NCBI GenBank assembly: GCA_965224465.1
Contig: OZ245049.1
Location: 4,170,001-4,202,000 of the forward strand
Reading direction: 5' to 3'
Length of the DNA: 32,000 nt
DNA from: Flavobacteriaceae bacterium
GTDB lineage: Bacteria; Bacteroidota; Bacteroidia; Flavobacteriales; Flavobacteriaceae
The position numbers and the translations under genes are program-made. Of this stretch, positions 8,427-23,010 are shown in pieces (the first letter of the stretch is position 1; each line of letters opens with the position of its first letter). The notes under the pieces are model-generated. The model made no database searches. It was not told the DNA's origin and saw only the letters and a program-made list of their open reading frames with translations.

Positions 8427-8561
8427 ATGAAAGCGTTAAAGAAACAATTTGGTTTATTAAACGAAACGTTGAACGGAGCTCCTAAAGGAAAAGGAAACTT
8501 TGTAAGAATTGAGAATGCAAAACGTTCTGTATGGAACAATAAAAGAAGGTTCGGCCTATGA
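8427..8561 (+). CDS. Unlisted small basic protein, 44 aa (MKALKKQFGLLNETLNGAPKGKGNFVRIENAKRSVWNNKRRFGL)
   Basis: ATG-initiated ORF below the 60-aa cut-off of the ORF track. It is bracketed by a -7-like box and a hairpin plus T7 terminator. No family was recognised. Confidence 0.35.
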   Translation: MKALKKQFGLLNETLNGAPKGKGNFVRIENAKRSVWNNKRRFGL

Positions 8562-8601
8562 TAATATAGATATTAAACTTTGGAAATTATTTGGATAAAA
8601 A

Positions 8602-8629
8602 CCTGCGTATTAGATATGTGGGTTTTTTT
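8602..8629 (+). terminator. Candidate rho-independent terminator
   Basis: 9-bp stem CCTGCGTAT/ATATGTGGG (3 G-U pairs) with a 3-nt loop, followed by T7. Confidence 0.4.
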
Positions 8630-9056
8630 ATGTCCATTTTTTTGAAGACTTTTAAAACGTATTTGCTTGAGATTTTAATAGCATACGCCCTTTTTATTCT
8701 TGTACAAGTAAAATTTTTCTTCGGTACTTTGTTTTCTATGTGCTTTACATGGATAATATGGTTTGTGTCAGCCATCAATTTTTTGAAGTACTTATACAAT
8801 TACAATCCAAAATAACCGATATAAATAGGTTGTTTTACGTTCTAGCGTTGTTAAAAAATAGAACAATAACTATGGCTATCCATTCATTTTTCGCCTAGCT
8901 AAAACAAAAATAATTCCATTTCTAAACCGTCACTTGAAAAATGTAGTTGGTATAACAGAATTGTTGTTATGCCAATAATTATAGGACTACCTGTTTGTTG
9001 TGTTCTTGCTGTGTTAAGATGGTATAAGTAGGAAATGGAATGTTGTTGGTTTACGA

Positions 9057-9154
9057 GATTCCGCATTAGGGATAGCAGTGGAAAGCCCGTATGCCACTTT
9101 GTGGCAACGTACTTGAAACGGATAGCCCGACGGACCGATAGGGACGGAATGCCC
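9057..9154 (-). repeat. GC-rich structured element, family 'X', copy 1 (possible ncRNA or REP-type element)
   Basis: Minus-strand sequence is GGGCATTCCG...CGGGCTATCCG...TGCCAC-AAA-GTGGCA hairpin...CACTGCTATCCCTAATGCGGAAT. ATTCCG and CGGAAT can close the element. It shares three conserved blocks with 21237-21352. GC content is far above the surroundings, and the overlapping 85-aa ORF looks non-coding. Confidence 0.45.
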
Positions 9155-9185
9155 AAAAAAAAATCCGCTCATTGCTGAACGGATT
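9155..9185 (-). terminator. Rho-independent terminator of the M20 peptidase gene
   Basis: On the minus strand, an imperfect hairpin TCCG-TTCA...TGAG-CGGA is followed by T9. Confidence 0.55.
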
Positions 9186-9204
9186 AATGAATTTTGTAAT
9201 TGCT

Positions 9205-10596
9205 TTATGACTTACTCATTTCTGTAAAATATTCAAAAAAGTAAGGGATGGTTTCAATTCCTTTAAGGTAATTAAAAATTCCATAATGCTCGTTTGGCGA
9301 GTGAATGGCATCGCTGTCTAAACCGAATCCCATAAGGATAGTTTTACTTTTTAACTCTTGTTCAAACAAGGCTACAATAGGGATACTTCCTCCTGAGCGT
9401 TGTGGAATCGGCGTAGTTCCAAAAGTTTTAGCGTAGGCTTTATGAGCTGCTTTGTACCCAATATTGTCTGTAGGTGTTACATAGCCATGCCCTCCATGGT
9501 GTGGGGTGACTTTTACCGACACAGATTTAGGTGCTATTTTTAAGAAATGTTTGGTGAATTTCTCTGTAATTTCATCGGGTGTTTGGTTGGGTACTAGGCG
9601 CATCGATATTTTTGCATGTGCTTTGGATGCGATCACTGTTTTTGCTCCCTCTCCAGTGTATCCTCCCCATATTCCGTTTACATCTAGGGTAGGGCGGATG
9701 GAGTTGCGTTCGTTGGTGGTGTATCCTTTTTCTCCGTGAATATCACTTAAGGCGATAGATTTTTTATACGCCTCTAAACTAAAAGGAGCTTTTGCCATTT
9801 CTGCACGTTCTTCCAAGCTTAATTCTTCTACATTATCATAAAAACCATCGATGGTAATGCGGTTGTCTTCGTCTTGTAAAGAGCCAATCATTTTAGCCAA
9901 TATATTGATGGGATTTGCTACAGCTCCTCCGTATAATCCTGAGTGTAAATCACGGTTTGGACCTGTTACCTCAACCTCCACGTAGCTCAATCCACGCAAT
10001 CCTGTGGTGATGGATGGTTGCTGGTTAGAAATCATTCCTGTGTCTGAGATTAAGATGATATCATTTTTTAATTTTTCTTGATTTCTCTTAACAAACCATT
10101 CTAGACTCTCTGAACCAACTTCTTCTTCACCTTCTATCATAAATTTGATATTGCAAGGTAATTTGTTATTGGCAGTCATAAATTCCATGGCTTTTACATG
10201 CATGTACATTTGTCCTTTGTCATCACAAGCACCACGTGCAAAGATGGCACCTTCTGGATGAATGTCTGTTTTTTTGATTACAGGTTCAAAGGGGCCACTG
10301 GTCCATAATTCTAATGGATCGGCAGGTTGCACGTCGTAATGTCCGTAAACAAGTACTGTTGGAAGTGCAGGATCTATGATTTTCTCGCCATAAACAATCG
10401 GATTTCCGGGAGTTTCACATATTTCTACAGTATCACAACCTGCTTTTTCAAGAGCGATTTTGATGGCATCTGCAGTTTTTAAAATGTCTTTTTTATAGGC
10501 AGGATCTGCGCTAATTGACGGTATTTTAAGGAGTTCGATCAGTTCGTTTATAAAACGATCTTTGTGCGTGTCAATGTATGATTTTATATTTTCCAT
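9205..10596 (-). CDS. M20 family dipeptidase (ArgE/DapE/CPG2-like metallopeptidase)
   Basis: 463 aa. The motifs LVYGHYDVQP, ARGACDDKG and MIEGEEEVGS are typical M20 metal-binding and catalytic motifs. Confidence 0.85.
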   Translation of the reverse strand: MENIKSYIDTHKDRFINELIELLKIPSISADPAYKKDILKTADAIKIALEKAGCDTVEICETPGNPIVYGEKIIDPALPTVLVYGHYDVQPADPLELWTSGPFEPVIKKTDIHPEGAIFARGACDDKGQMYMHVKAMEFMTANNKLPCNIKFMIEGEEEVGSESLEWFVKRNQEKLKNDIILISDTGMISNQQPSITTGLRGLSYVEVEVTGPNRDLHSGLYGGAVANPINILAKMIGSLQDEDNRITIDGFYDNVEELSLEERAEMAKAPFSLEAYKKSIALSDIHGEKGYTTNERNSIRPTLDVNGIWGGYTGEGAKTVIASKAHAKISMRLVPNQTPDEITEKFTKHFLKIAPKSVSVKVTPHHGGHGYVTPTDNIGYKAAHKAYAKTFGTTPIPQRSGGSIPIVALFEQELKSKTILMGFGLDSDAIHSPNEHYGIFNYLKGIETIPYFFEYFTEMSKS

Positions 10597-10685: not shown

Positions 10686-10767
10686 GCAGGCGTGGTGGAA
10701 TTGGTAGACACGCTAGACTTAGGATCTAGTGCCGCAAGGTGTGAGAGTTCGAGTCTCTCCGCCTGTA
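10686..10767 (+). tRNA. tRNA-Leu (anticodon UAG), long variable arm, no encoded CCA
   Basis: Acceptor GCAGGCG pairs with CGCCTGT (G1-U72 wobble). D-arm GTGGTGGAATTGGTAGACAC. Anticodon stem CTAGA/TCTAG with loop CTTAGGA. Long variable arm, and T-arm GAGAGTTCGAGTCTCTC. Confidence 0.9.
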
Positions 10768-10777
10768 CAAGCTGAAA
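10754..10777 (+). repeat. attL: 24-bp direct repeat (tRNA-Leu 3' end plus 10 nt)
   Basis: TCTCTCCGCCTGTACAAGCTGAAA is identical to 20995-21018. Confidence 0.85.
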
Positions 10778-10815
10778 CCTCAACCGTTGGATTATCAACG
10801 GATTGAGGTTTTTTT
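10778..10815 (+). terminator. Rho-independent terminator after tRNA-Leu (supplied by the inserted element)
   Basis: CCTCAACCGTTG/CAACGG(A)TTGAGG 12-bp stem (one bulge), followed by T7. Confidence 0.7.
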
Positions 10816-10824
10816 ATGCTTTTA

Positions 10825-10845
10825 ATTGTACGATTATTGTACGGT
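10825..10845 (+). promoter_or_regulatory. Paired ATTGTACG(G) motifs, 11-bp phasing (candidate integrase arm-type sites, left end)
   Basis: ATTGTACGattATTGTACGGT. The same doublet occurs in the same orientation at 20836-20856. Confidence 0.4.
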
Positions 10846-10860
10846 CAGCTATTGTTTGAT

Positions 10861-10922
10861 GGTGTAAGCACTTTATTTGACAAAGATAAAAAGATGTTTT
10901 TCAGCTTACATTTCGTGCATTT
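10861..10922 (+). repeat. 62-bp direct repeat, copy 1
   Basis: GGTGTAAGCACTTTATTTGACAAAGATAAAAAGATGTTTTTCAGCTTACATTTCGTGCATTT. It is 61/62 identical to 12500-12521 plus 14537-14576, the copy split by IS66. Confidence 0.85.
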
Positions 10923-11130
10923 ACTGCATTACTTTTTTTTCTGTAAACATAATACTACTTTACATTTAGTTTTTAATAAAAGTAAAAACCAATCTAAATC
11001 TTTAGTATTGTAGTTTAGAATGATTTTAAATATTTTATTAATCAGCATAGTAACTAACTTAATTTTATACATTAGATGTGTTTAACCACAATTATTAAAA
11101 ACAGTAACGATTTAACACAAAAAAATAATT

Positions 11131-11748
11131 ATGAAAAAATTAGCTACACTTATTCTTTTAGTACTTTCAATTAACATCTCAAATGCACAAAAAAAATTAA
11201 AGTCAATTGATACACTTGATTTAAATAAAACTACAGCAAAAGAAATGTTTAAAAAATTCAAGAATAATATTGATGTTAAAGTGCTTATTCTTAAAGACGG
11301 TTCGATAGTCCAAAAGGGAAGTGATTTTACAATTGGAAAACCTTCAAATCATAAAGATGTAAATAATAAAAATTTCAGTTATTTAATGATTGGAAAATAT
11401 ACAATTATGAGCGCTCTAGGTGCTGTCTATTTTTATGACACTTTTTCTCAGACAGAAATTGTAGTTGAAAAAATTAAAGTATTTAGAACAAAAAGAGTAA
11501 TTCAACCCGCAATTGAGTTTACTAAAAAAGACGGAACAAAAACGGGATTAGGAAAATATGGAAGTATTATAAACTTAGAACTAGCAATTTTAAAAGGTGA
11601 AATTATTAATCCAAACAGACCTATGACGAGAAGTGAGGCTATTGCAAAATTAAAAGAAGCTAAAGATTTACTTGATTTAGAAATGATGAGTGAGGAAAAA
11701 TATAAGGAGTTAAAGGAACAGTTAAAACCCCTAATAATGATTAAATAG
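11131..11748 (+). CDS. Secreted hypothetical protein with SHOCT-like C-terminal motif
   Basis: 205 aa with a signal peptide (LLVLSINISNAQ). The C-terminal region AIAKLKEAKDLLDLEMMSEEKYKELKEQL resembles the short C-terminal SHOCT domain. Confidence 0.6.
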   Translation: MKKLATLILLVLSINISNAQKKLKSIDTLDLNKTTAKEMFKKFKNNIDVKVLILKDGSIVQKGSDFTIGKPSNHKDVNNKNFSYLMIGKYTIMSALGAVYFYDTFSQTEIVVEKIKVFRTKRVIQPAIEFTKKDGTKTGLGKYGSIINLELAILKGEIINPNRPMTRSEAIAKLKEAKDLLDLEMMSEEKYKELKEQLKPLIMIK

Positions 11749-11873
11749 AAAGTATTATTTATGTTTTCAGCAAACATAATTTACAATTTAGTAAATGCGC
11801 AAAATAACAAAGGAGAATTCAATGGCGATTCATTTGAAAATTACGTAATATAATTTTATCTCTTTAGTGGTTT

Positions 11874-12233
11874 TTATTTGCCTACTGCGTGACTTCTTGT
11901 GATTTTGTATTCTGTATTCATTGAAACAATATCATCGTGTACTGTAAGTGCTCCAAAAGAATTGTTTGCTCTGTATTTGTGACTAATTGTAAAATATAAA
12001 ATTTTATCTAGTGGGTCATTTTTGAAATGGGATACATCTGCATTTCGTTTTTTATAAATTGCTATTTTTTTTGCGACCGTAACTGTGTCCATGAATTTAA
12101 TGCTTATTTTTTCATAACTAGAAGGGTCTTTAAAATTTGTTTGGACATAGTTTTCTATGCTTTTTTCAAAAGGGGTTTGTTCTGCACACCCAATAATTGA
12201 TAAGACTAACAGGGATAATAATAATTTTTTCAT
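11874..12233 (-). CDS. Hypothetical lipoprotein
   Basis: 119 aa with lipobox LSIIGC. No family was recognised. Confidence 0.55.
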   Translation of the reverse strand: MKKLLLSLLVLSIIGCAEQTPFEKSIENYVQTNFKDPSSYEKISIKFMDTVTVAKKIAIYKKRNADVSHFKNDPLDKILYFTISHKYRANNSFGALTVHDDIVSMNTEYKITRSHAVGK

Positions 12234-12499
12234 CTGATTTGGTTTTAATTAACTGTTGAAATTATAATTTATTTTAGATATTATTGCCTTTATATTTTAA
12301 TATTTATTGATTTTTCTATAGTTAGTATGCTTTACGATTGGTTCTCTTTTTTATATTTAACCTATGTTAAGTTAAGACAGGTGAAATAACCTTAGTTGCT
12401 GAGGTGTGTATAATTTATTTTGCTTGTTGTCTTGACTGTGTTTCATGTTTCTAATATTGTGAGTAATTTCTTTTATTCGGGTTAAGTGGTCGGACTATA

Positions 12500-12521
12500 G
12501 GTGTAAGCACTTTATTTGATA
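12500..12521 (+). repeat. 62-bp direct repeat, copy 2, left part (interrupted by IS66)
   Basis: Matches 10861-10882 and continues at 14537-14576. Confidence 0.85.
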
Positions 12522-12600
12522 GTAAGCGTACGGAGAACTACATCTTGTAAGAAGTTAAAAATAATCTAATTTTTGCATCTAAACAAAAACGAAAATATAA

Positions 12601-12954
12601 ATGTTAGGATTAGGTACAGAACACACGTATTATTATCACTTATCTGCAGTTGATATGCGAAAAGGATTTAATGGATTAAGTGGATTAGTTAGTGAGCACA
12701 TGGAACAAGAGCGAGATAGAAATAGTGTTTATGCATTTATCAATAAGCAAAAAAATAAACTAAAACTTCTTCATTGGCGACCTGGAGGATTTGTACTGTA
12801 TTATAAACGATTGGAACGAGGTATTTTTGAGCTTCCAAAATACGACATTGAAGATGGATTAGTAGTTTTGAGTTATACCCAAATGGTTATGGTTTTAGAC
12901 GGAATTAGTATTATAAATACTCAGAAAAACGAACGTTATTTAGAGGCTAAATAA
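12601..12954 (+). CDS. tnpB: IS66 family Orf2 accessory protein (IS66 TnpB; unrelated to RNA-guided TnpB)
   Basis: 117 aa. The motif DMRKGFNGLSGLV is typical of IS66 Orf2, and the gene sits directly upstream of the IS66 DDE transposase. Confidence 0.85.
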   Translation: MLGLGTEHTYYYHLSAVDMRKGFNGLSGLVSEHMEQERDRNSVYAFINKQKNKLKLLHWRPGGFVLYYKRLERGIFELPKYDIEDGLVVLSYTQMVMVLDGISIINTQKNERYLEAK

Positions 12955-12997
12955 TTCAATAAAACTGTAGGTTTTACCTGCTATTTAGTCTTGTTTT

Positions 12998-14500
12998 TTG
13001 TATATTTATAGTGTGGAAAACAATACAATAGACATACAAAAAGAGCTGGTAATTTTAAAGATTGAACTTGAAAAAACAGCTCAAGAACTAGCTGAAATTA
13101 AGCAGCAATACGAGCAGCTTAAAAGAATGGTTTTCGGGTCTAAAAGCGAACGTTTTATCCCTGTTGACACAAATCAATTGTCGCTTTTCGGAAAAATAAT
13201 AGCTGAGAAAGAAGAGGCATACAAAAAACATATTGTAATCTACGAAAGAAAACAAAAGAAGAAAGGAAAGAAAAAACCTGTTCGCTCTTCTATACCTGCG
13301 CATTTTCCGCGAGTAGAAGAGATTATAGAGCCTAAGCACATAGAAGAAGGAGCTGTAAAAATAGGAGAAGAAGTTACAGAACTTTTAGAAATAACGCCTC
13401 TTTCCGTTTTTGTAAGACGAATTGTAAGACCTAAATATGCACTTCCGGAAGAAAAAGGCGTTGTTATAGCAGAATTACCAAGCTTACCGATACCTAAAGG
13501 AAATGCATCAGCAAGTTTATTGGCCTTTATACTTATTTCAAAATTTGTAGACCATTTACCACTTTACAGATTAATTCAAATTTTTAAACGACAAGATTTA
13601 AAAGTAAGTAAATCAACAATTGGAGGATGGGTATCTAAAAGTTCGGAGCTTATCGCTCCTTTATACGATACATTTAAGGCTCAGTTTTTAGAAAATGCCA
13701 ATTATATTCAAGCAGACGAATCTCCTATAAAGGTTTTAGATAAAGACAAGAAAAAATCAACACACAGAGGGTATATGTGGGTGTATCGAAATCCTGTTAA
13801 AAATTTAGTTCTTTTTGAATACAATAAAGGGAGAGGAAAAGTTGTTCCAGAAGAGTTTTTTAAAGATTTCAATGGGACACTACAGTCCGATGGGTATGCT
13901 GCATACCAAAACTTAACAACAAAAGGAGAAATTACTCTTTTAGGTTGCATGGCTCATGCTAGGCGGTATTTTGAGAAGGCGCTGGATAATGATCCTAAAA
14001 GAGCGGATGTTGTTTTGTTGGAAATTCAAAAGCTATACAAGATAGAACGTAAAATAAAAGAACAAGAATTAACTATTGAGCAAACTAAAGCATATAGAGA
14101 AAAACATGCATCACCTGTTTTAGACGGAATAGAAATTTATCTTACAAAAGAGCGAAAAAACGTACTGCCTAAAAGTGCCATAGGAAAAGCAATTGCTTAT
14201 ACTCTTAAAATATGGCAAAACCTAAAACTATACATCGATGATGGCAGGTTTGAAATAGACAACAATAATATAGAAAATGCCATAAGACCTTTAGCTATTG
14301 GCAGAAAAAATTATCTCTTTGCTGGCAGTCATGAGTCCGCACAAAACATAGCTCTATTTTATAGCTTTTTTGCTACTTGCAAAAAGAATAACGTAAACCC
14401 ACATACGTGGCTATGTGATGTCCTTAATAGATTACCAGAACATAAGGCTAATAAACTTTCGGAGTTACTGCCTCAAAATTGGAAGCCTGTTGATAAATAA
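12998..14500 (+). CDS. tnpC: IS66 family DDE transposase (TnpC)
   Basis: ~500 aa with an N-terminal coiled coil followed by the MVFGSKSERF motif, and an IS66-type catalytic core and C-terminus. The start is uncertain: either TTG at 12998 or GTG at 13012. Confidence 0.85.
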   Translation: MYIYSVENNTIDIQKELVILKIELEKTAQELAEIKQQYEQLKRMVFGSKSERFIPVDTNQLSLFGKIIAEKEEAYKKHIVIYERKQKKKGKKKPVRSSIPAHFPRVEEIIEPKHIEEGAVKIGEEVTELLEITPLSVFVRRIVRPKYALPEEKGVVIAELPSLPIPKGNASASLLAFILISKFVDHLPLYRLIQIFKRQDLKVSKSTIGGWVSKSSELIAPLYDTFKAQFLENANYIQADESPIKVLDKDKKKSTHRGYMWVYRNPVKNLVLFEYNKGRGKVVPEEFFKDFNGTLQSDGYAAYQNLTTKGEITLLGCMAHARRYFEKALDNDPKRADVVLLEIQKLYKIERKIKEQELTIEQTKAYREKHASPVLDGIEIYLTKERKNVLPKSAIGKAIAYTLKIWQNLKLYIDDGRFEIDNNNIENAIRPLAIGRKNYLFAGSHESAQNIALFYSFFATCKKNNVNPHTWLCDVLNRLPEHKANKLSELLPQNWKPVDK

Positions 14501-14536
14501 TCAAGGGTGTACTTTACCGTACGCTTACATTTGATA

Positions 14537-14576
14537 AAGATAAAAAGATGTTTTTCAGCTTACATTTCGTGCATTT
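14537..14576 (+). repeat. 62-bp direct repeat, copy 2, right part
   Basis: Matches 10883-10922. Confidence 0.85.
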
Positions 14577-14612
14577 CTTACATCGTTCTTCATTTATAAT
14601 TATCAAAAAAAT

Positions 14613-15200
14613 CTACATTAATAACATTTTTTCAAACACTTCAAAGTTTATACTGTCTGAATCTTCAATTTGTTGCATCAATTTTAAGTATCGTTTTGTA
14701 GGTTTTCCTTTGTATGTTTTTTTGAAATGCTTTTTATAAAGCTGCTCAAAGGCTTCATCAGTTTTAAAATATGCTTGCATTGTTTTTTTTAATAGCCTAT
14801 TTGATTTACTATGTGTTTGACTTTCATACATACAATTTATAAAAGCTTCACGATGTAAAAAGGATGCGCCTATTAAATATAAGATTCTGCAACGTTTATT
14901 TGTTCGAGGGCAGAGGAAAAACCATACAACGCCCTTGCCTAAATTAGAGGGTACAGAAACCAAAAGTATTTTGTGTTGCTGTGGCTCATCAAAGTAATTG
15001 TAGTTTAATTCAATAAAGGCTTGTTGATTTATGGTGTTTACTTTTATTGAAATACACCCTGTTTCTATTCCGTTACTACTCCATTTTATTATTCCGCTTT
15101 TAATAATGTTTGAGTTAAGATAACCCCATTCTTTAAGTTTAGTAATGCTTAGTTGTAGCGCATTATCGAATAAGGTAGGGTCTGTATAAGGCTTCGGCAT
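14613..15200 (-). CDS. Island ORFan, 195 aa (degenerate zinc-ribbon-like FLCPRTNKRCRILY segment)
   Basis: Long ATG-initiated ORF, last in the co-directional island operon. No family was recognised. Confidence 0.5.
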   Translation of the reverse strand: MPKPYTDPTLFDNALQLSITKLKEWGYLNSNIIKSGIIKWSSNGIETGCISIKVNTINQQAFIELNYNYFDEPQQHKILLVSVPSNLGKGVVWFFLCPRTNKRCRILYLIGASFLHREAFINCMYESQTHSKSNRLLKKTMQAYFKTDEAFEQLYKKHFKKTYKGKPTKRYLKLMQQIEDSDSINFEVFEKMLLM

Positions 15201-15257
15201 AGTGTCTAGTTTTGATAAATGAAACCTAAATTCTTAGAGAACATTTATTATTTGTTT

Positions 15258-16349
15258 TTACTTTATTAAATAATAATCTGCTAAATCAAAGCCGTTATTA
15301 AAAGAGGTTTGTTCTAGTAATTTACTAACTGCAATTTTAAAACCTTTGGTGTTTAGCTCCTTTGCTTTGTTGCTCCAGTTGTTAAACTCTCCTTTGTCGG
15401 GAAAAGCGAAACAGTTCCTTTTTTTTAAGGGTTCTAGTAATTCAAATTTAAAATTGCTTTTGCTCCCAGTAGCAAGCCAAATAAAATCAGGTAAATAAAT
15501 ACTCATAATAATAGCGGTTTTTTCACTTTCAACAATGGCAATGTTTTTTTGATAGTCCTCATTAATTAAGTGTAAACCAAATAAGCATTGGCAAAGGTTA
15601 AAATTAGGCTCTTTAACGGCTTTATGTAACCAGTTGATGTGATTGTATGGCTTCTTTATTCTTTTGCCTGTATCTGTATTGTAGAGCATTATTTTAGCAC
15701 CGCTTATTTGCTCTTTTGTGTTAATCTGCCAAAAGATAGTTGCGTTTTTCCAAAAGTAATTTGTGCCAGTTAGATAGTAGTTACTTGTTGCTTTTTGTAC
15801 TTCGGTAAGTGTAAAATTCTTTAGTAAATAAGTTGTTAGGTTATCGTCAAATGGTTGGTTGTTGTATTTTTTTATTAAGCCGTCTTGTATCTCTAAACTG
15901 TGAAAGCTTGGTTCAATTTGTTCAGGTGCTTTGATCGTTTTTACTTCATTTATCAAAAATGTTCCGTCAGTATTGAAATACTTACTTTCATTATTTAGAT
16001 AATTGATTGTTGAGGTTTTTAAATACCATTCAGTAATAAAACAGCTTCCTTCTCTTTGCTCTAATATTTGTGAAGTGGGGATGATGGCTATAGCTCCATT
16101 TTCATCTACTAATTTATGCGCTTTGTCTGTTATGCTGCTAATGCTTAAAAAGGGTACTAAAAACCCTCTTTTTCCTTTTGGTGGTGCTTTGTGATAGTTG
16201 CAGTTTTGCTCCCTGTCGCATCTGCCAAAATCAGTAGTTAAGTAGTTGCCCTTTTCTGTATCAATATAATAAACAAACGTCTTTTTAGAACAGTTAGGGC
16301 AAACATACTTTTTACTACTTTTCTCTAAGGAATATTTAAAAACCTCCAT
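15258..16349 (-). CDS. Zn-ribbon + Toprim-like primase-related protein
   Basis: The N-terminal segment CPNCSKK...(C-rich: CDREQNCNYH) looks like a zinc finger. The C-terminal VESEKTAIIMS and AFPDKGE resemble the Toprim E and DxD-like motifs. It overlaps the helicase gene by 14 nt. Confidence 0.6.
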   Translation of the reverse strand: MEVFKYSLEKSSKKYVCPNCSKKTFVYYIDTEKGNYLTTDFGRCDREQNCNYHKAPPKGKRGFLVPFLSISSITDKAHKLVDENGAIAIIPTSQILEQREGSCFITEWYLKTSTINYLNNESKYFNTDGTFLINEVKTIKAPEQIEPSFHSLEIQDGLIKKYNNQPFDDNLTTYLLKNFTLTEVQKATSNYYLTGTNYFWKNATIFWQINTKEQISGAKIMLYNTDTGKRIKKPYNHINWLHKAVKEPNFNLCQCLFGLHLINEDYQKNIAIVESEKTAIIMSIYLPDFIWLATGSKSNFKFELLEPLKKRNCFAFPDKGEFNNWSNKAKELNTKGFKIAVSKLLEQTSFNNGFDLADYYLIK

Positions 16350-17535
16350 AAGATAAAATGTTTTTTTTAGTTGAAATATAAGCTACATTCCCTGCTGTTT
16401 TACGCTCCACAACTATTTTAAAATGCCGTAGTCGCTTCATAAAGTTAGATTTATTAACTGGTCTAAAACCGTCTTCAATACAATATGCTTTGTATTGGCA
16501 GTATAGTTTGCTGATAGGTGTGTAATCTGTCGAAGTATTATATTCAAACTCATCAACAAACATTTTTACACTATCACTTTGTTTTTCGTAATCGGTTCGG
16601 GCGTTTTCTATGGCTTCACATTTACTGAAATTCTTTTGTTTTAAAACTCTTTCAAGACCTGATAAAATCCAATTAAAAACCCCTGATAGCTCGCTGTCAA
16701 TTATCTTGTTTGCGAGCTGCTTGTCTTGTTTGTCTTCGGGTATGGTAACGTCAAAACCAATGATTAAAAAACGTCTGAAAAATGCGTTCGTATGTTCTAC
16801 GTCTTTTGGTAAATCATTACAGTTAAATATAAGCTTTGCGTATTCATTTAAAATAAAAGGCTCTCCATAGGGCAAACGTGCTTCAATTGGTTCTCCTGAA
16901 GCCATTTGTTTAAAAATATCGGTTTCTAGTTTTCCGTTTATTTCACTAGCATAATTGACTAATTTATTTGCTATTTTTGCCCTAAAATATCCGTTGTCAT
17001 TTGTTAGGCTTTGTAATGAATAGTTACTAATATTTTGAAGACCTAAAAGGGCGTTTATTATATCAAAGAATACGGATTTTCCGTTTGCTCCTGTTCCATA
17101 CAGGATAAGCATTTTTTCTAATTTTAAAACGCTTGGTTTTATGAAAATATACCCACAATATTCTGCAAATACTTTTTGTTTGTTTGGGTCGGGTAGTACC
17201 TCATCTAAATATTTTTGAAATAGTGGTGCTTTGTTTTCGGGGATGTATTCAAAAGGTAATTGATGTGTTAAAAAATCATTTCTGTTAAATGCTCTTAACT
17301 CTCTTTTTGTGGGAGTTATTTCAAACGTTCCATTTTCTAAATTAATGAGTACATTTTTTTTGTTTGTCTTTGGCGTGGGTAGATATGCATCTGCCATAAA
17401 CTGTTTAAATAACTCATCTTTGAAAGTGTGAATTTTACATTTGAATTTTTCAACGCCCATTTTAAAAGATACATTGCCTAAAAAAGATTGAAAGCTTTCT
17501 TTGTTGATTTCGCTCCAGTAGCTGCCATTATACAA
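16336..17535 (-). CDS. P4/D5-type primase-associated SF3 helicase (phage/plasmid primase C-terminal domain)
   Basis: Walker A GTGANGKS, plus a D5_N-like region before it and a P4-type C-terminal region after it. The listed start is a TTG. The frame stays open for 75 more codons upstream (to 17760) with no start codon; see findings. Confidence 0.75.
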   Translation of the reverse strand: MYNGSYWSEINKESFQSFLGNVSFKMGVEKFKCKIHTFKDELFKQFMADAYLPTPKTNKKNVLINLENGTFEITPTKRELRAFNRNDFLTHQLPFEYIPENKAPLFQKYLDEVLPDPNKQKVFAEYCGYIFIKPSVLKLEKMLILYGTGANGKSVFFDIINALLGLQNISNYSLQSLTNDNGYFRAKIANKLVNYASEINGKLETDIFKQMASGEPIEARLPYGEPFILNEYAKLIFNCNDLPKDVEHTNAFFRRFLIIGFDVTIPEDKQDKQLANKIIDSELSGVFNWILSGLERVLKQKNFSKCEAIENARTDYEKQSDSVKMFVDEFEYNTSTDYTPISKLYCQYKAYCIEDGFRPVNKSNFMKRLRHFKIVVERKTAGNVAYISTKKNILSYGGF

Positions 17536-17732
17536 ATAAATGAAACCATTTTTTTTGCATAAACCCCAGTTATTAACCTTTGCGATTTTTAAAAGTTGTT
17601 CAATGCATAGAACTAAATAATGATTTTTAGAAAGCTTATAGCCGCTAATACGTTTATTTAGTTTTTTGAATTTGTCAAACTCCGCCTTGTTTTCCTTGTT
17701 GTAGCTTCCGTCGTCATTAAATACAAACTCTT

Positions 17733-17924
17733 TTAATTCTTCAATTTGTTTTTTATAATTTCAATATCGGGAAACGCTAATATTTGAAAGTCAATTTTAT
17801 TAATGCTTTTTGATAGCTCCTGTAAAATATCATCGGTTGTTTTTTCTGAATACTCAAAGGATTCTGATAGTTTTTGTACCTCATCTGTAATGATGGTATT
17901 TAACTTGTTCTTGCTTGTATTCAT
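17733..17924 (-). CDS. Small acidic ORF (63 aa), possibly the N-terminal part of the helicase gene
   Basis: ATG-initiated and 3 nt downstream of the preceding gene. It ends inside the start-less open extension of the helicase frame and contains an in-frame A_AAA_AAC heptamer. Confidence 0.45.
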   Translation of the reverse strand: MNTSKNKLNTIITDEVQKLSESFEYSEKTTDDILQELSKSINKIDFQILAFPDIEIIKNKLKN

Positions 17925-17927
17925 GAC

Positions 17928-18236
17928 TTAAAACATTTTTAATTGGTTGGTCTGAGGAAATAAATTTGGGTCTGTGGTTATGGCTTGAACGGTGCGCCCT
18001 GAACGTTCGCATTTTATTACTCCTATAACCATGGCTTTATCTTGGGTAATCCAATCTGAAATATATTGAGTAACCATGTAGGTTTGGTCTGGAAACCCTA
18101 ACTGTGTTGCAGCCATTCTACGGGTTAAAGGTTTCTTGTGTAGTAAATTGAAAAGTTGTGTTTTGTTTGCCTTTTTTGTATCTTTACCTTGCTTAGAACT
18201 ATTAAAATTAAGGCTTTGTGTATTGGTAGTACTCAT
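17928..18236 (-). CDS. Island hypothetical protein, possible winged-helix DNA-binding protein
   Basis: 102 aa. The HTH assignment (segment LTRRMAATQLGFPDQ) is tentative. The gene is tightly packed in the operon. Confidence 0.45.
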   Translation of the reverse strand: MSTTNTQSLNFNSSKQGKDTKKANKTQLFNLLHKKPLTRRMAATQLGFPDQTYMVTQYISDWITQDKAMVIGVIKCERSGRTVQAITTDPNLFPQTNQLKMF

Positions 18237-18240
18237 AGCC

Positions 18241-18525
18241 TTATTTTTTTAGAGGTTTTAGACTTTCTAAAATCTCATTGCGTTTATAATAGTTTTTATT
18301 AGCAAATTTGTAAACGATAATCTTTTTGCTATTTTGCCAATTCCATAAAGTTGTGGGATTGATTTGAAGAAGTGACAATACCTGTTCTCTTGTCATCAAA
18401 TCGTCTTTGGCTGTTTGATTATGGAACTCTTTCTTAAAGACTTCTAATTGGCTTTTTACGCTTTCTTTGATTAGCTGTGCTAAACCTTCAGGACTTACGT
18501 TCTGTAATAAAATTGACTGTGTCAT
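18241..18525 (-). CDS. Excisionase-family / MerR-like helix-turn-helix protein (Xis-like)
   Basis: 94 aa. The segment LMTREQVLSLLQINPTTLWNWQNSKKIIVYKF matches the HTH_17 excisionase-type pattern. Confidence 0.65.
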   Translation of the reverse strand: MTQSILLQNVSPEGLAQLIKESVKSQLEVFKKEFHNQTAKDDLMTREQVLSLLQINPTTLWNWQNSKKIIVYKFANKNYYKRNEILESLKPLKK

Positions 18526-18596
18526 TTATCTACTATTTAAATTAATAATAGACAAATATTGATTTGGGATTGACCTTTGAAATGGTAGTTTTCGAC

Positions 18597-19430
18597 CTAT
18601 TTCAAGGTTATGTTCAGGTTGCTTTTATATTGCTTATAATCGTTTGTTCTTTGGATATTAGGATTCGACTTTAAGTTTTGCTTTCTTAATGTGGTAATTG
18701 TACCTTCAAAATATTCTCCATTAATCCAATTAATAAAATGCTTTAATTCAACTGTTTCTTGAAAATAACTATCTAACATCATCAATTGAAAGATTACGCT
18801 TAAGTCAGTTTGACTACTTGCAGTAATGTTTTTATTAGTTCTGTATAATTCCCATAAATCAAAGGTATTGCCTTTGAAAATATTATTGTGTAAATTAGGT
18901 TGAATGTCCTCTTTTTGTTGAGGTTCTTCATGCCTAGGGTTATCTAATTCTCCTAATTTGGTTTCTAAATATATTAGGTAGGCTTCACGTTTTTCGATAT
19001 TAATTGCTTTCATTCCGAAATGTTCAGTTCCGTACTTGTCAAGATAAACTTGGTCGTACTTATTGAATTGCTCAAATTTTTTAATTTGTGTTTTTATGAA
19101 AAGTTGAGTTTGTTTACTTTTGGTTATAAGGTTATTGAATCCTTCTTCCTGTTTTGTTTTAAGGTATTTTTTAAGTGTAATTTCGTAGTATTCGGGGATT
19201 AAGGAGAGGTAATCAATTGGGAAGTGGTCACGGTCTTCTAATTGCATTAAGAACTTGCAGCAGTCAATATCTGTATGAATTTTTTTCTGCTTATGGTCAA
19301 TATGAAAACGGCTTTCACTATAGTTTAAATTGTAATTGCCTTGATTTTTTAAAATATTATAAATATCTTTTGACTCAAAATCTGATTTTTCTAATAACGT
19401 GTAATTTTCTATAGTTAAATCTAATATCAT
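18597..19430 (-). CDS. Island hypothetical protein, possibly RteC-like regulator
   Basis: 277 aa, adjacent to the integrase. The C-terminal segment SSQTDLSVIFQLMMLDSYF...HFINWI loosely resembles the RteC winged-helix end. Assignment is weak. Confidence 0.35.
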   Translation of the reverse strand: MILDLTIENYTLLEKSDFESKDIYNILKNQGNYNLNYSESRFHIDHKQKKIHTDIDCCKFLMQLEDRDHFPIDYLSLIPEYYEITLKKYLKTKQEEGFNNLITKSKQTQLFIKTQIKKFEQFNKYDQVYLDKYGTEHFGMKAINIEKREAYLIYLETKLGELDNPRHEEPQQKEDIQPNLHNNIFKGNTFDLWELYRTNKNITASSQTDLSVIFQLMMLDSYFQETVELKHFINWINGEYFEGTITTLRKQNLKSNPNIQRTNDYKQYKSNLNITLK

Positions 19431-19497
19431 TGAGGAATTTTATTTTATGCAATAAATGTACGAAATGTAGTAAAAAAAACAACTTTATTTTTTTTTG

Positions 19498-20802
19498 TTA
19501 AAAATACTTACTCATGTCCATTGCTAAATCCTTGTTGCTTTTACCTATGTATTTTAAAAACATTGCTTCGGTACTATGTCCTGTTATGTACATTAAATGG
19601 GTAGTGGGTATTTTACCGTAAAAGTTAGAAGCAAAAGAGCGTCTTCCAATATGCGAGGTTACTAATTCGTATTTTTTGTATAAGCCTGTTTTTTTTCTGT
19701 AAATTTTACTGTCAGGTTCTGTTTCTGTTTTTTTGCTGCCTTTAATTATTTCGTTTATTTCTGCTATTTCACAAACTACCTTTATAAAGTCATTGTACTT
19801 TTGGTCTGAAATTGAATAAGGAAATTTTCCGTTTCTTTTATTGAGTATTTCTAATGCTTTTGGATGCAAAGGCACGGTCATGTTCTTAGTTGTTTTCTTT
19901 TGGGTAAATTCGATTAAGTGTTTGCCGTCTTCAATACGTATTTGTTTATCTGTGAAGCGCATAAAATCCGAAACCCTTTGTCCAGTATAACAACTGAAAA
20001 TTAACCAATCTTTTGCGTTGTTTAGGCTGTCGGTTAATTGGCTACTGCTGATGTTTTCTATTTTTTTTAAGTCTTCAAAGGTTAAATAGATTATTTCTAC
20101 TTTTTCACGTTCAATTTTTAGTCCGTTTAATTGGTGGTGGGTTGCAATACCTAAAAAACGAGCATGGAAACAAAATGTTTTTATAAATACAAATGCCCTT
20201 TGGATGGTGTTTTGTGCGTACAATTCCTGTTTGCAGTAGTTTACAAATTCATTTTTAAAGCTGTCGTTTACGCCATTGATTAATATGGTTTTTTTTCTGA
20301 AAGCTTCAAAGCGTTTTAAAAGTGCTTTTATTACGTTAATCTTTTTTAGCGTGCTTTTTGTGAGTTCATTTTTACGGTAGTCATTGTAAAAATCTATGTA
20401 GTTGATTAAGTCGGAAGGAACGTGTTTTTCTTCTGTGGGAGGATTGTAATAATAATCAATTTGAGTTTGTAACCATTCTTTGTTTATGGTTTCATGGTTT
20501 ACAGAATTGAAAGCGGTTAAAATGTGTTTTTCTATTTTGTTGAGTTCAGAATTTACTTCGGTTTGTTTATTGGTAACTTCAATATCCTTTGATTTTTTTT
20601 TATGTTGTTTGCTCCAGTATTTTTTTTCAATCTCAAATTTTGTTTGCGCTCCAAAATTATAATCTGTATAAGGGAGTTCTTTTGCTTCTCCTGTTTTCTT
20701 ATTAATTATAGTAGATGGTTTGTCAATATCTCTATGTAGTAGACGTAAAACTAAATTTGCCTTTTCTTTTCTTGAACGGTATAAAAAATTAATGGATGCC
20801 AT
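19498..20802 (-). CDS. int: Tyrosine-type site-specific integrase (Bacteroidota phage-integrase family)
   Basis: 434 aa. Catalytic-domain motifs are YTGQRVSD (Arg I), HIGRRSFAS (H-x-x-R) and HSTEAMFLKYI (His/Tyr). The N-terminus is arm-binding-like (MASINFLYRSRK). Confidence 0.9.
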   Translation of the reverse strand: MASINFLYRSRKEKANLVLRLLHRDIDKPSTIINKKTGEAKELPYTDYNFGAQTKFEIEKKYWSKQHKKKSKDIEVTNKQTEVNSELNKIEKHILTAFNSVNHETINKEWLQTQIDYYYNPPTEEKHVPSDLINYIDFYNDYRKNELTKSTLKKINVIKALLKRFEAFRKKTILINGVNDSFKNEFVNYCKQELYAQNTIQRAFVFIKTFCFHARFLGIATHHQLNGLKIEREKVEIIYLTFEDLKKIENISSSQLTDSLNNAKDWLIFSCYTGQRVSDFMRFTDKQIRIEDGKHLIEFTQKKTTKNMTVPLHPKALEILNKRNGKFPYSISDQKYNDFIKVVCEIAEINEIIKGSKKTETEPDSKIYRKKTGLYKKYELVTSHIGRRSFASNFYGKIPTTHLMYITGHSTEAMFLKYIGKSNKDLAMDMSKYF

Positions 20803-20835
20803 AGGTGTATGTTTTTAACAATACAAATATAGAAA

Positions 20836-20856
20836 ATTGTACGGTAGTTGTACGGT
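20836..20856 (+). promoter_or_regulatory. Paired TTGTACGG motifs, 11-bp phasing (candidate arm-type sites, right end)
   Basis: ATTGTACGGtagTTGTACGGT lies 34 bp upstream of the integrase start codon. It is the same doublet as at 10825-10845. Confidence 0.4.
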
Positions 20857-20994
20857 TAAAATCAAATTGATTAAAACTATTGCAATCTAAATAAAAGTAG
20901 TTATATTCGAAAAGGCTTGCTGTGTATTGCTTTTAATAGTATTTTTCAATGAAACTAGGTAATGTGAGTATGTGGCTGTTTGTGGTGTTTGTAC

Positions 20995-21018
20995 TCTCTC
21001 CGCCTGTACAAGCTGAAA
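20995..21018 (+). repeat. attR: 24-bp direct repeat (orphan tRNA-Leu 3' end)
   Basis: Identical to 10754-10777. It is followed by its own terminator. Confidence 0.85.
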
Positions 21019-21019
21019 G

Positions 21020-21046
21020 CCCGGAAATTTATTTTCGGGTTTTTTT
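21020..21046 (+). terminator. Rho-independent terminator (probably the original tRNA-Leu terminator)
   Basis: 8-bp stem CCCGGAAA/TTTTCGGG (one G-U pair), followed by T7. Confidence 0.6.
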
Positions 21047-21236
21047 ATGGACTTATTTTAAGGAATATGGACTTTTAAAAATGATTGGAATTATCTGTTG
21101 TTTCTTTTTTAGAGAGCACTACTATTCTTAGGAAGCAGCTGATTTTAGTGTTTGTAAAATCCTCCTTTATCAATAGTATATTTCCATAGCATATACATGG
21201 CTATTATGGTCGGGGGATACATAATAAATCTGCTTT

Positions 21237-21352
21237 GGGCGTTCCCCAAGGGGCGGGCTATACGCTCATACGCTTCGCTTTTTTTAGATTGGAGTAACTA
21301 CCGTTCCTCCAATCTGAAAAAAACTGCAGGGTAACCGCTGCTATCCCTAACG
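21237..21352 (+). repeat. GC-rich structured element, family 'X', copy 2 (3'-truncated)
   Basis: GGGCGTTCC...GCGGGCTATACG...long hairpin AGATTGGAG/CTCCAATCT...CCGCTGCTATCCCTAACGC. It has the same three blocks as copy 1, in the opposite orientation. It abuts a RAYT 5' fragment. Confidence 0.45.
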
Positions 21353-21437
21353 CTTCACGGTTTTTTCGCGAAATTAGGTCTTACCAACTTTTTTTTGTGA
21401 AAATAATTTGAATGTATATTTACGTGTATGTATTAGC
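21353..21437 (-). pseudogene. Orphan 5' fragment of a Y1 (RAYT/IS200-like) transposase gene
   Basis: About 90% identical to 23103-23187, the 5' end of the larger pseudogene. It is truncated after roughly 25 codons and contains stop codons. Confidence 0.6.
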
Positions 21438-21886: not shown

Positions 21887-23010
21887 CTTAAATTCAACTA
21901 ATAAACGCAACTTTTCGATTTGATTCTATGATGGTTATATTTTCAAAACAGAAAAGTAGGAAAACCTACCTTTCTTGTCTTGATGGATATGTATCTTACG
22001 GTCTCAAATCTCGAAAAAAGAAGTTGTATGAAACACATCACCCAAGCACAAAGATACACAATTTGCTGCATGTTAAAACAAGGTTATAAACAGGTTGAGA
22101 TAGCAGCTGCTATAGGAAAAGACAAGTCTGTTATTAGCAAAGAGATTAAGCGTAATTCAGACAAAAGAAATGGAGTTTACAAGCATGAATTAGCCCAAAA
22201 AAAGTATGCTAAACGTCATAAAGAAAAGCCTAAAAGAAAACGCTTTACAGAAGATATTCAACAAGCAATAGAATTGTTATTGCGAGACGATTATAGTCCT
22301 GAGCAAGTAGTTGGTATCCTAAAAAAACAAGGTAAAGAAACGGTGTCTATTGAGCGTATATATCAGCATATTAGGGAAGACAAGAGGAATGATGGTGATT
22401 TACATACACACCTTCGCAGACAGGGAAGGAGATATAGAAAACGTGGCTCATCAAAGGATTCTAGAGGGGTTATAAAGAATCGCATTAGTATAGAACAACG
22501 ACCTGAAGTTGTTGAACAAAGAAATCGATTTGGAGATTTAGAGGTCGATTTAATCATAGGTAAAAACCATAATCAAGCCATACTTACCGTAAATGATAGA
22601 GCTTCTGGAATGCTTAAAATGAAAAAAGTAAGCTCTAAAGAAGCAGTTGTTGTCACCAAAGCTATCAATGAAATATTAGAAGACTGGAAGCCTTATCTAC
22701 ATACTATAACAGCTGATAATGGAAAAGAATTTGCAGGCCATGAGCAGGTTGCAGAAAATTTATGTATTGATTACTTTTTTGCGCATCCATATCACTCTTG
22801 GGAAAGAGGATCTAACGAAAATTTAAATGGTTTGATTAGACAATATTTTGCCAAAGGAAGTGACTTTACAAACCTAACAGATCAAAGAATCAAAGAGGTA
22901 GAAACAAAATTAAATAACAGACCTAGGAAGAGACATAAATACGAAAACCCTATATTTGTAATGGAACAATTATTATTTAACTAAAAGTTGCGTTTGTGAC
23001 TTGAATTCAG
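21887..23010 (+). mobile_element. IS30-family insertion sequence (~1.12 kb)
   Basis: Imperfect ~28-bp terminal IRs: CTTAAATTCAACTAATAAACGCAACTTTT against the reverse complement CTGAATTCAAGTCACAAACGCAACTTTT. CAAT is duplicated at 21883-21886 and 23011-23014. Removing the element restores the reading ...DHIHLLIGLKPY... in the RAYT. Confidence 0.85.
22028..22984 (+). CDS. IS30 family DDE transposase
   Basis: The N-terminal HTH MKHITQAQRYTICCMLKQGYKQVEIAAAIGKDKSVISKEIKRN and the catalytic region (GDLEVDLI, TITADNGKEF, SWERGSNENLNGLIRQY) are typical of IS30. ATG 22028 is preferred over the upstream TTG 21980. Confidence 0.9.
   Translation: MKHITQAQRYTICCMLKQGYKQVEIAAAIGKDKSVISKEIKRNSDKRNGVYKHELAQKKYAKRHKEKPKRKRFTEDIQQAIELLLRDDYSPEQVVGILKKQGKETVSIERIYQHIREDKRNDGDLHTHLRRQGRRYRKRGSSKDSRGVIKNRISIEQRPEVVEQRNRFGDLEVDLIIGKNHNQAILTVNDRASGMLKMKKVSSKEAVVVTKAINEILEDWKPYLHTITADNGKEFAGHEQVAENLCIDYFFAHPYHSWERGSNENLNGLIRQYFAKGSDFTNLTDQRIKEVETKLNNRPRKRHKYENPIFVMEQLLFN

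Follow-up and report, generated by a model that had tools for sequence, protein, structure and literature searches.

The question raised by this locus is what kind of mobile element has entered a tRNA-Leu(TAG) gene of a Flavobacteriaceae bacterium, and how such an element passes from host to host. The sequence analysed, called the window below, is the 32,000-nt stretch at positions 4,170,001–4,202,000 of OZ245049.1, and coordinates refer to the window. The initial annotation proposed that an island bounded by two copies of the tRNA 3' end is a phage satellite. We found that the interval is an integrated mobile element, which was placed in the 3' end of tRNA-Leu(TAG) by a tyrosine integrase with duplication of 24 bp. 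Its architecture, its family and the logic of its excision and replication are well supported, and its transfer route is unproven. We give roughly even credence to the reading that the island is a phage satellite of the virion-encapsidated integrative mobile element (VEIME) or PICMI (short for phage-inducible chromosomal minimalist island) type, travelling in the capsid of a co-infecting phage.

An element integrated in the tRNA-Leu(TAG) gene

The integration target, tRNA-Leu(TAG) at 10686–10768 (+), is the single tRNA located in the window by ARAGORN and Rfam (RF00005 match at 10686–10767, 57.7 bits), and its last 15 nt lie inside the left attachment site. A repeat search showed that the 24-mer TCTCTCCGCCTGTACAAGCTGAAA has exactly two copies in the window, the attL core at 10754–10777 (+) and the identical attR core at 20995–21018 (+), while none was expected in 100 shuffles even with three mismatches permitted. 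This repeat consists of the final 15 nt of the tRNA and 9 nt downstream, and the exact duplication described in the initial annotation was thus confirmed. The island measures 10,241 bp (10.24 kb) from att to att, and 8,226 bp (8.2 kb) when the IS66-family insertion sequence (2,007 bp plus an 8-bp target duplication) is subtracted, which is the size that had been estimated. The G+C content is 26–34% within the island versus 35–41% to the left of it.

Each att copy had been described as having a terminator of its own, and our folding data agreed with this. A hairpin with a T-run lies beside attL at 10778–10816 (+; −18.9 kcal/mol, z = −6.1) and another beside attR at 21019–21048 (+; −12.6 kcal/mol, z = −4.0); neither was matched by any shuffle in folding energy, and a simple terminator scan missed both. 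Since each att copy has its own hairpin and T-run, the element brings a new terminator and displaces the old one rightward. The element is therefore the source of the terminator at 10778–10816, which replaces the tRNA's own, and the one at 21019–21048 is the terminator that the tRNA gene had before integration, moved to the island's right end. A pattern search located the motif TTGTACGNTNNTTGTACGG at only two positions in the window, one beside each att, with none expected by chance: TTGTACGaTTaTTGTACGG at 10826–10844 (+) in the tRNA-proximal arm and TTGTACGgTagTTGTACGG at 20837–20855 (+) in the integrase-proximal arm. This pair is a candidate for the arm-type sites of the integrase. The junction predicted for the excised island is ...GTGTTTGTAC-TCTCTCCGCCTGTACAAGCTGAAA-CCTCAACCGTTGG... 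(attP), and that predicted for the empty chromosome is the tRNA end followed by GCCCGGAAATTTATTTTCGGG (attB).

The core genes of the island are all on the minus strand, in the order integrase, protein X (ORF277, where ORF denotes open reading frame), an excisionase (Xis)/AlpA-like helix-turn-helix (HTH) protein, ORF102, a superfamily 3 (SF3) helicase of the P4/D5 type, a Zn-ribbon/DUF6371 protein, and ORF195. The integrase, the Xis-like HTH protein and the helicase had been named from the sequence alone, and family searches matched all three. The 434-aa tyrosine integrase (19498–20802, −; Phage_integrase and Phage_int_SAM_5) reads as intact, with the R, H-x-x-R, H and Y positions readable, and is 73% identical to the integrases of the related loci L097 and L101. 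The 94-aa HTH protein of the MerR/excisionase/AlpA type (18241–18525, −) has a weak match to HTH_17 (1.7e-4) and one to phrog_66, annotated as 'excisionase and transcriptional regulator'; its relatives have precomputed HTH_17 matches. The SF3 helicase of about 529 aa (16336–17924, −), which is split in this copy, matched D5_N, DUF5906 and Pox_D5, the NCBIfam model TIGR01613 'phage/plasmid primase, P4 family' (3e-51), and a PHROG labelled 'DNA primase' (4e-81).

The next gene (15258–16349, −) encodes a protein with Zn_ribbon_16 and DUF6371 domains (Pfam 7.6e-60 and 1.3e-22; NCBIfam PG0870_Nterm). The initial annotation called it a Zn-ribbon/Toprim protein; the zinc ribbon stood, and the name 'Toprim' was not confirmed by a profile search or by a profile search against the PDB, which gave no match. 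From its context and motifs we regard it as a putative primase. This role is suggested by the N-terminal zinc ribbon, by Toprim-like conserved acidic motifs (IAIVESEKTAI ... FPDKGE) read from the alignment, by its being the constant neighbour of three replicative helicase types (D5-like, DUF3987 and AAA_25/DnaB-like), and by the label 'DNA primase/helicase' given to the matching region in the gut phage csAssE-Sib. A phage-like IMG/VR contig from the human gut (L025, 9929–17476) has a Zn-ribbon/DUF6371 gene adjoining those of a DnaB-like helicase, a Bro-N protein and a ribonucleotide reductase, and this phage replication context also supports the primase role.

Five or six ORFans had been counted in the island. 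One of them (17733–17924) turned out to be the N-terminus of the helicase, while ORF195, ORF102 and ORF277 are indeed without a family match. ORF195 (14613–15200, −) is one of a uniform family of 195-aa proteins, which comprises 1,488 clusters and matches nothing in Pfam. The family has a Cys-x6-Cys ... His ... Cys pattern with Cys97, Cys104, His116 and Cys123 invariant, an invariant His-Arg-Glu motif, and many invariant basic and aromatic residues, and this pattern together with these residues suggests a zinc-binding DNA-binding protein. ORF102 (17928–18236, −) is a conserved small protein encoded between the HTH and helicase genes; a Pfam search gave no family and a PDB search only noise. 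It clusters with the helicases of relatives, as would be expected if the two proteins were fused in a number of these. ORF277 (18597–19430, −) has only 12 homologs; its N-terminus varies, its C-terminal domain, of about 100 aa, is conserved, and it occupies the position of TnpC in the Bacteroides transposon Tn4555. Structure prediction, which had been recommended for the ORFans, was of use for ORF277 and failed for ORF195. The AlphaFold2 model of ORF277 is confident, with a predicted local distance difference test (pLDDT) score of 79; it begins with an alpha/beta unit, continues as a long hairpin of coiled coil and ends in a helical domain, and Foldseek gave no match to it at E ≤ 0.001 in PDB and BFVD. 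The model of ORF195 was unusable (pLDDT 50), and a profile search of ORF195 against the PDB returned noise. As speculation, the variable N-terminus, the conserved C-terminus and the TnpC position of ORF277 would suit a sensor-regulator.

A family of islands in Flavobacteriaceae and its excised forms

Homologs of the DUF6371 protein fill more than 3,513 clusters at E ≤ 1e-10. The 120 best of these are 68–80% identical to it, and those with a name belong to Polaribacter, Mesoflavibacter and Flavobacterium. When species-representative genomes were scanned, 79 loci were obtained, and 23 islands among them could be bounded by 13–19-bp direct repeats matching tRNA 3' ends. The targets were Leu-TAG, Leu-TAA, Arg-ACG, Arg-TCG, Ala-GGC, Ser-GGA and Met-CAT, the hosts Polaribacter, Flavobacterium, Lutibacter and other genera, and the size 6.3–8.9 kb in 20 of the 23. 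Polaribacter marinus (L097) and P. marinivivus (L134) carry an island in the same tRNA-Leu(TAG) site as the window. Because the same unit was found at many sites in many genera, the block is a mobile unit and not conserved core DNA. The view of a bounded integrative element was thereby upheld, and the conserved core region that the initial annotation had named as grounds for abandoning it was removed from consideration.

The family has a fixed gene order: integrase, protein X (225–812 aa), HTH protein of about 93 aa, small protein of about 102 aa, helicase, DUF6371 protein, and then one to four small accessory genes. The helicase is replaced by a different type in some islands, and the smallest islands (L096 and L201) have essentially nothing after the DUF6371 gene. 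Accessory genes of the relatives encode the anti-phage ATPase QatA, a KAP NTPase, HD-CE, and P63C or Ant-like proteins. Accessory genes of this sort are common on satellites. Among the cargo of L174 (12865–17909) and other related islands we observed QatA (Qat), a KAP NTPase, HD-CE, an HSP90-like ATPase and a restriction-enzyme-like protein. A second subfamily (L139–L173, for example L149 and L157) has DUF6371 proteins 36–50% identical to that of the window, a tRNA-Met site with the integrase beside the tRNA, a helicase of another kind (about 345 aa), and large cargo proteins of 900–1,500 aa. In L003 (9007–14311), a second integrase gene comes directly after a related island, and with it an HTH_3 gene and some ten short ORFs on the same strand, an arrangement reminiscent of the early region of a prophage; an island and a prophage may here stand in tandem at a single att site.

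Six distinct relatives were found in the excised (attP) arrangement, and three of these have circular contig overlaps. L013 and L014, which came from two Joint Genome Institute (JGI) samples, each measure 8,519 bp, of which 127 bp are shared by the two ends; both are the same 8,392-bp circle, letter for letter, opened at different points. In L012 the contig ends share 45 bp; in L191 they share 78 bp, which closes a circle of 5.9 kb. L020, L193 and L201 show the permuted order in which the DUF6371 gene is followed by the integrase gene. In L012, L013 and L020, the stretch from the last gene to the integrase contains a terminator hairpin and a core resembling the complement of a tRNA 3' end, bordered on both sides by CCGTACAA-type repeats; the core of L020 is an exact 13-nt match to tRNA-Arg. 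This layout is the product expected from joining the attL and attR flanks of the window. In excised-form relatives no other gene separates attP from that of the ORF195 homolog, which was present in 9 of 26 elements. On the evidence of these six relatives, the family excises and persists as circles, as observed in relatives of the window copy.

The assembly of circles from metagenomes, together with the failure to find transfer genes in the island, would also fit an integrative plasmid-like replicon with no dedicated route, which spreads by vesicles, transformation or generalized transduction, or a window copy that is simply a decaying, immobile remnant. VEIME-like concatemers have been reported in vesicle fractions too (PMC9618062, PMC11876622). 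Thousands of variants with a conserved architecture and intact att sites occupy many tRNA targets in many genera, however, and this implies efficient horizontal spread. We consider this pair of explanations unlikely; what bears on decay is given with the damage to the window copy.

Possible transfer in a phage capsid or by conjugation

The reading as a phage satellite supposes the following course. The integrase and the HTH protein would excise the island as a circle, which the helicase and the putative primase would replicate. Having neither a relaxase nor virion genes, the circle would borrow a transfer machine, most likely the capsid of a co-infecting phage. The capsid is suggested because elements with the same core carry either the small terminase gene terS alone or portal, terS and large terminase (terL) genes. 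Capsid hijacking is further favoured by the lack of a relaxase, by the phage-type helicase, by one small relative in which terS stands alone, and by a size range matching that of VEIMEs and PICMIs, which are packaged as concatemers with no capsid remodelling (PMC9618062, PMC10803314).

The link to phages is seen in two IMG/VR contigs, L016 and L017, whose integrase is 45%, helicase 74–76% and DUF6371 protein 54–55% identical to those of the window, and which also encode protein X and the HTH protein. In both, the core is closely followed on the same strand by genes for a 239–260-aa protein, a portal of the SPP1 type and a protein of head morphogenesis, by terS and terL, and by the gene for a tail-like protein of 816–1,341 aa. 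Each is a single element, since no att site would fit into gaps so small. A Christiangramia genome contig (L132) has the same arrangement over at least 15 kb. The regions with core and packaging genes (L016, 5995–15927; L017, 7627–17427; L132, 11089–19000) belong to elements of at least 15–18 kb, in which PHROGs and Pfam recognised no major capsid protein. These elements could be small temperate phages or capsid-forming satellites.

L020 (IMGVR_UViG_3300000405_001831) is 6.9 kb long and has the attP arrangement; its integrase and that of the window share 56% identity. It encodes a 122-aa terS product (3568–3936; phrog_51, 1e-22) about 61% identical to those of L016 and L017, and this is its sole virion-related gene; its helicase is DnaB-like, not D5-like. 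A terS gene on an element with no capsid genes is the classic satellite device for redirecting the large terminase of a helper. MT835758.1, a 'Bacteriophage sp.' record of 19 kb with 50% identity in the helicase, was set aside as a relative, as it shares only the helicase and a distant integrase.

The presence of the same module beside portal and terminase genes in L016, L017 and L132 would also be expected if the island were a degraded prophage that has lost its structural genes. At least 23 islands have the same short layout with intact ends, several of them circular, and random decay would not yield a uniform product of 6–9 kb; no structural-gene fragments are left in the window. We consider this explanation very improbable. 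The initial annotation held that the island does not fit a prophage or an integrative and conjugative element (ICE), and this was borne out: the capsid, terminase and tail genes of a prophage were not found in it, nor were the type IV secretion system (T4SS), coupling protein and relaxase of an ICE, for which a size of 8 kb leaves no room.

Among the known satellites to which the island was likened in the initial annotation, the helicase, the tRNA site and the size do correspond, while a P4-like or phage-inducible chromosomal island (PICI) assignment did not hold. VEIMEs are marine elements from less than 5 kb to 16.8 kb with an integrase, an excisionase or AlpA, a primase/helicase and no capsid genes, some of which carry terS (PMC9618062); some were found integrated in Flavobacteria (Eppley et al. 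2022, PMC9618062). The window island resembles them in size range, integrase, excisionase/AlpA, primase/helicase and absence of capsid genes, but VEIMEs are defined by concatemers inside virions and were compared here by description, whereas the present family is known from its genes. PICMIs of Vibrionaceae are described (PMC10803314) as very small elements with reduced gene content and no capsid-remodelling genes that are packaged as concatemers. They differ from the window island in host phylum and proteins, and helper dependence was demonstrated for PICMIs, not for this island.

P4-like satellites share with the island the TIGR01613 helicase, the tRNA integration and the AlpA/Xis-type HTH protein. 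Unlike P4, the island has no matches to Psu, Delta and Sid and no recognised cos site, and its putative primase is the separate DUF6371 protein, whereas the P4 primase is a domain of the alpha protein; the helicase part alone corresponds. Elements of the Staphylococcus aureus pathogenicity island (SaPI)/PICI type carry their own terS, as L020 does, and the window island does not. It also differs from them in having no divergent Stl-like repressor, its core genes being on one strand; of the traits that define a PICI (a divergent repressor/activator pair, pri-rep, and terS or ppi/cpm), neither a repressor nor terS was recognised in it. Tycheposons of Prochlorococcus are tRNA-targeting tyrosine-recombinase elements with a primase/helicase and cargo that occur in vesicle and virus-like-particle fractions; their host and proteins differ, and the likeness is one of description alone. 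In general terms, the island has what satellites have in common, namely an integrase with att sites, a replication module (its helicase frameshifted here) and no complete virion gene set, and it was not found to have a determinant that redirects helper packaging, such as terS, cos/pac or a capsid-size factor, although a cos/pac site can be recognised only when the helper is known.

The backbone, which the initial annotation had not recognised, is by its gene order that of the Bacteroides mobilizable transposons minus their defining relaxase. The Tn4555 block consists of TnpA, integrase, TnpC, excisionase, AAA ATPase, DUF6371, a hypothetical protein and CfxA (PMC13183296). The 10,057-bp circular record CP103138.1 has the Tn4555 order with a 'mobilization protein' directly after DUF6371, and the Bacteroides xylanisolvens plasmid pFunn3_1 has HTH, integrase, hypothetical, HTH, DUF3987, DUF6371 and MobV relaxase genes. 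In MTnBf8, which is of the nonreplicating Bacteroides unit (NBU) type, int is followed by several ORFs, a P-loop NTPase, a 'Topoisomerase primase', a MobN1-like gene, cargo, and attR by tRNA-Ser (PMC13597742). Common to the window island and the Tn4555/NBU type is the order integrase, X/TnpC, Xis-like HTH, P-loop helicase/ATPase, and DUF6371 or Toprim. Tn4555, MTnBf8 and the pFunn3_1 element are likewise small (10–17 kb), circle-forming integrative elements, their DUF6371 proteins are 33–38% identical to that of the window, and MTnBf8 and the window island both have the integrase at the end far from the tRNA. NBU1, an element of 10.3 kb, also targets a tRNA-Leu 3' end. The integrase and the accessory genes with a circle, and the ATPase/helicase followed by DUF6371/Toprim, are therefore present as in the Tn4555/NBU type; the Mob relaxase is not, by BLASTP, NCBIfam and Pfam, of which Pfam misses the Mob protein of Tn4555 as well. 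In the Tn4555/NBU type, Mob directly follows DUF6371/Toprim and the element is moved by conjugative transposons. The window island also differs in its integrase, which is only distantly related, and in its helicase of the phage P4/D5 type. As a side observation, CP103138.1 (L175), recorded as a Bacteroides fragilis 'plasmid', is an excised Tn4555 circle carrying cfxA, and PLSDB/MOB-suite type it as non-mobilizable despite its mobilization protein, which has no Pfam match.

The island can be described as a satellite-like, relaxase-less branch of the Tn4555/NBU backbone and a member of an unnamed family. A search of the accessible literature found no description of the family. It may already sit unnamed in the VEIME dataset, VEIMEs in Flavobacteria having been reported.

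This backbone raises the possibility that the island is a relaxase-less branch of the Tn4555/NBU-type transposons which still moves by conjugation, through an oriT and a co-resident relaxase or through a hidden relaxase (ORF195 or protein X). The gene order matching that of Tn4555, pFunn3_1 and MTnBf8, the identity of the DUF6371 proteins, and the location of ORF195 in the position of Mob after DUF6371 all fit this idea. The proteins of the window gave no match to a relaxase, T4SS, capsid, portal, terminase or tail family in Pfam, PHROGs and NCBIfam, and the 100 accessory or X proteins of the 23 islands gave none to relaxase, T4SS or virion families in the same databases, in agreement with the absence of capsid, terminase, tail, relaxase and T4SS genes claimed at the outset. 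As a control, the Mob protein of Tn4555 had no Pfam match and MobV of pFunn3_1 only a sub-threshold one, and an unrecognised relaxase is for this reason conceivable. When these two proteins were used as BLASTP queries against 230 element proteins, nothing was found at E ≤ 0.1; no relaxase was found by NCBIfam either, and no Mob was found in the window island or in the 26 relatives examined. The smallest islands, L096 and L201, end practically at the DUF6371 gene. ORF195, with 195 aa, is less than half the length of the Mob proteins (467 and 677 aa), occurs in only a minority of the elements, and shows no visible HUH or Mob_Pre-type motif; the relatives carry phage packaging genes, not Mob. Transfer by conjugation therefore seems to us rather unlikely.

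Several points nevertheless weigh against transfer in a phage capsid. The closest annotated relatives of the backbone (Tn4555, MTnBf8 and pFunn3_1) are conjugatively mobilized, and the Pfam negatives for relaxases are weak because the control proteins were missed or fell below threshold. Neither the window island nor the 23 genomic islands surveyed have a recognisable terS, cos/pac site or capsid-redirecting gene, and among the loci fetched the only smaller contigs with terS are L020 and L226. No helper phage was found in the 32-kb window, and no evidence of encapsidation was obtained. Close relatives are nearly absent from IMG/VR, where the best match of the DUF6371 protein is 55% identical and the ORF195 family has one match; single-protein scans of it with the DUF6371 protein and the helicase gave nothing, and matches were obtained only with alignment queries. 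As IMG/VR selects on viral hallmark genes, near-absence from it is weak evidence. Excision of the window copy itself, for which a search had been recommended, was not detected: a scan of metagenomes for the attB/attR junctions gave 0 matches. An empty site or other strains were not retrieved, the flanking proteins having no record and the island proteins being nameless singletons. For the proposal of a phage satellite, then, relatives with terS or with portal, terS and terL and the presence of circles speak in its favour, and encapsidation, a helper and a packaging determinant were not shown.

A broader proposal, which we put forward tentatively and with less confidence than the satellite reading itself, is that one Bacteroidota-wide integration-replication chassis takes up swappable transfer modules. 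The minimal islands of Flavobacteriaceae would then be abundant marine satellites, with ORF195 and protein X as hijacking or helper-sensing factors. Under the same somewhat doubtful scheme, the module would be a relaxase in gut Bacteroidales, portal with terS and terL in some elements, terS alone in others, and none in thousands of islands of 6–9 kb. A backbone common with Tn4555/NBU suggests that conjugative mobilization and capsid hijacking may be exchangeable on one chassis, which bears on the origin of satellites and mobilizable elements. Flavobacteriaceae are major degraders of algal bloom carbon. Islands of this family abound in them, to judge by more than 3,500 DUF6371 clusters and about 1,500 ORF195 clusters, and if these islands are satellites, they would amount to a sizeable and untapped pool of phage parasites within an important marine group, with new helper-sensing and hijacking genes and with cargo including anti-phage systems. 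Intact copies are present in the cultured strains Polaribacter glomeratus ATCC 43844 (L096 and L098), P. marinus MSW13 and P. marinivivus CECT 8655, which makes the question directly testable.

Cargo, repeats and damage in the window copy

Two secreted or lipoprotein cargo genes had been annotated in the island, and the signal peptides read from their sequences support this. The first encodes a 205-aa secreted protein with an N-terminal signal peptide and no family match (11131–11748, +), and the second a 119-aa lipoprotein whose signal peptide ends in Cys (11874–12233, −; phrog_21933), a homolog of which is present in the island L109. PADLOC gave only insignificant matches on the island proteins.

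The window copy is itself an ordinary, damaged member of the family, and this damage had not been noticed before. In relatives, the helicase is encoded by a single gene of 520–529 aa. In the window, a 1-nt frameshift in the A-run at 17749–17754, which is A6 here and A7 as implied by the relatives, splits it into ORF63 (17733–17924), the N-terminus, and a 399-aa ORF (16336–17535). The remainder of the helicase is 90% identical to the intact protein of L005. Either a recent mutation has inactivated the gene here, or the homopolymer was misread in sequencing. The second lesion is an IS66-family insertion sequence (12522–14528, +; TnpB_IS66 and DDE_Tnp_IS66) with the TnpB gene at 12601–12954 and the DDE transposase gene at 12998–14500. 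Its inverted repeats begin with GTAAGCGTACGG and its target duplication is 8 bp long (ATTTGATA, with the left copy at 12514–12521); it sits within the second copy of a 69-nt repeat, beside the cargo. With the frameshift and an insertion in this conserved repeat, the window copy is probably crippled.

These two lesions and the crowding of the right flank by insertion sequences are what would be expected of the decaying remnant mentioned above. The att copies are, however, identical at 24 of 24 positions and the integrase reads as intact, and the 90% identity of the helicase to an intact homolog indicates that its damage is recent, or that the frameshift is a sequencing error. We retain the phage satellite as the preferred reading.

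The first copy of the 69-nt repeat (10861–10929, +) lies between the tRNA-proximal arm site and the gene for the secreted protein. The second lies just after ORF195 and is split by IS66 into a left part (12500–12521, +), whose last 8 nt are ATTTGATA, and a right part (14529–14583, +), which begins with the second ATTTGATA and is 93% identical to the first copy. The two direct copies bracket the 1.6 kb of cargo. A third, partial copy (19447–19494, +) is inverted and lies between the integrase stop and the start of ORF277. In relatives, an A/T-rich repeat core of 20–22 nt is found as an inverted pair, after the integrase gene and 110–130 nt from the tRNA-proximal att, and the ATGCACGAAATG part of the repeat follows the ORF195 homolog in circles. 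On one side the repeat pair looks toward the core operon; on the other, in L005 and the window, it looks toward cargo encoded on the opposite strand. This suggests that the repeat is a putative shared promoter/operator. Integrase arm sites were rejected as an explanation, because the third copy is 1.5 kb from the core and therefore too far, which makes the shared promoter/operator the likelier of the two. An origin of the duplicated repeat from tandem elements was also rejected, as no middle att core or terminator lies upstream of the second copy.

Outside the island, a stretch of about 1.3 kb at 7936–9205, left of an M20 peptidase gene, has a G+C content of 0.29 and no ORF of at least 90 aa. 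A G+C-rich structured stretch was observed just right of attR, at 21200–21400, with a weak, sub-threshold match to the Flavo-1 RNA (RF01705) at 21247–21358 (−; 20 bits against a gathering score of 42, E = 0.22). Farther right, the flank is a patchwork of insertion sequences. An IS30-like element (21891–23007; HTH_38 and rve) has 25-nt inverted repeats, and an IS1595-like element (23887–24953) has 17-nt inverted repeats, solo copies of which are found at 23227–23243 and 23621–23637. The 20-nt motif CCATAGGTGCGACCTGTTAA is also repeated in this flank.

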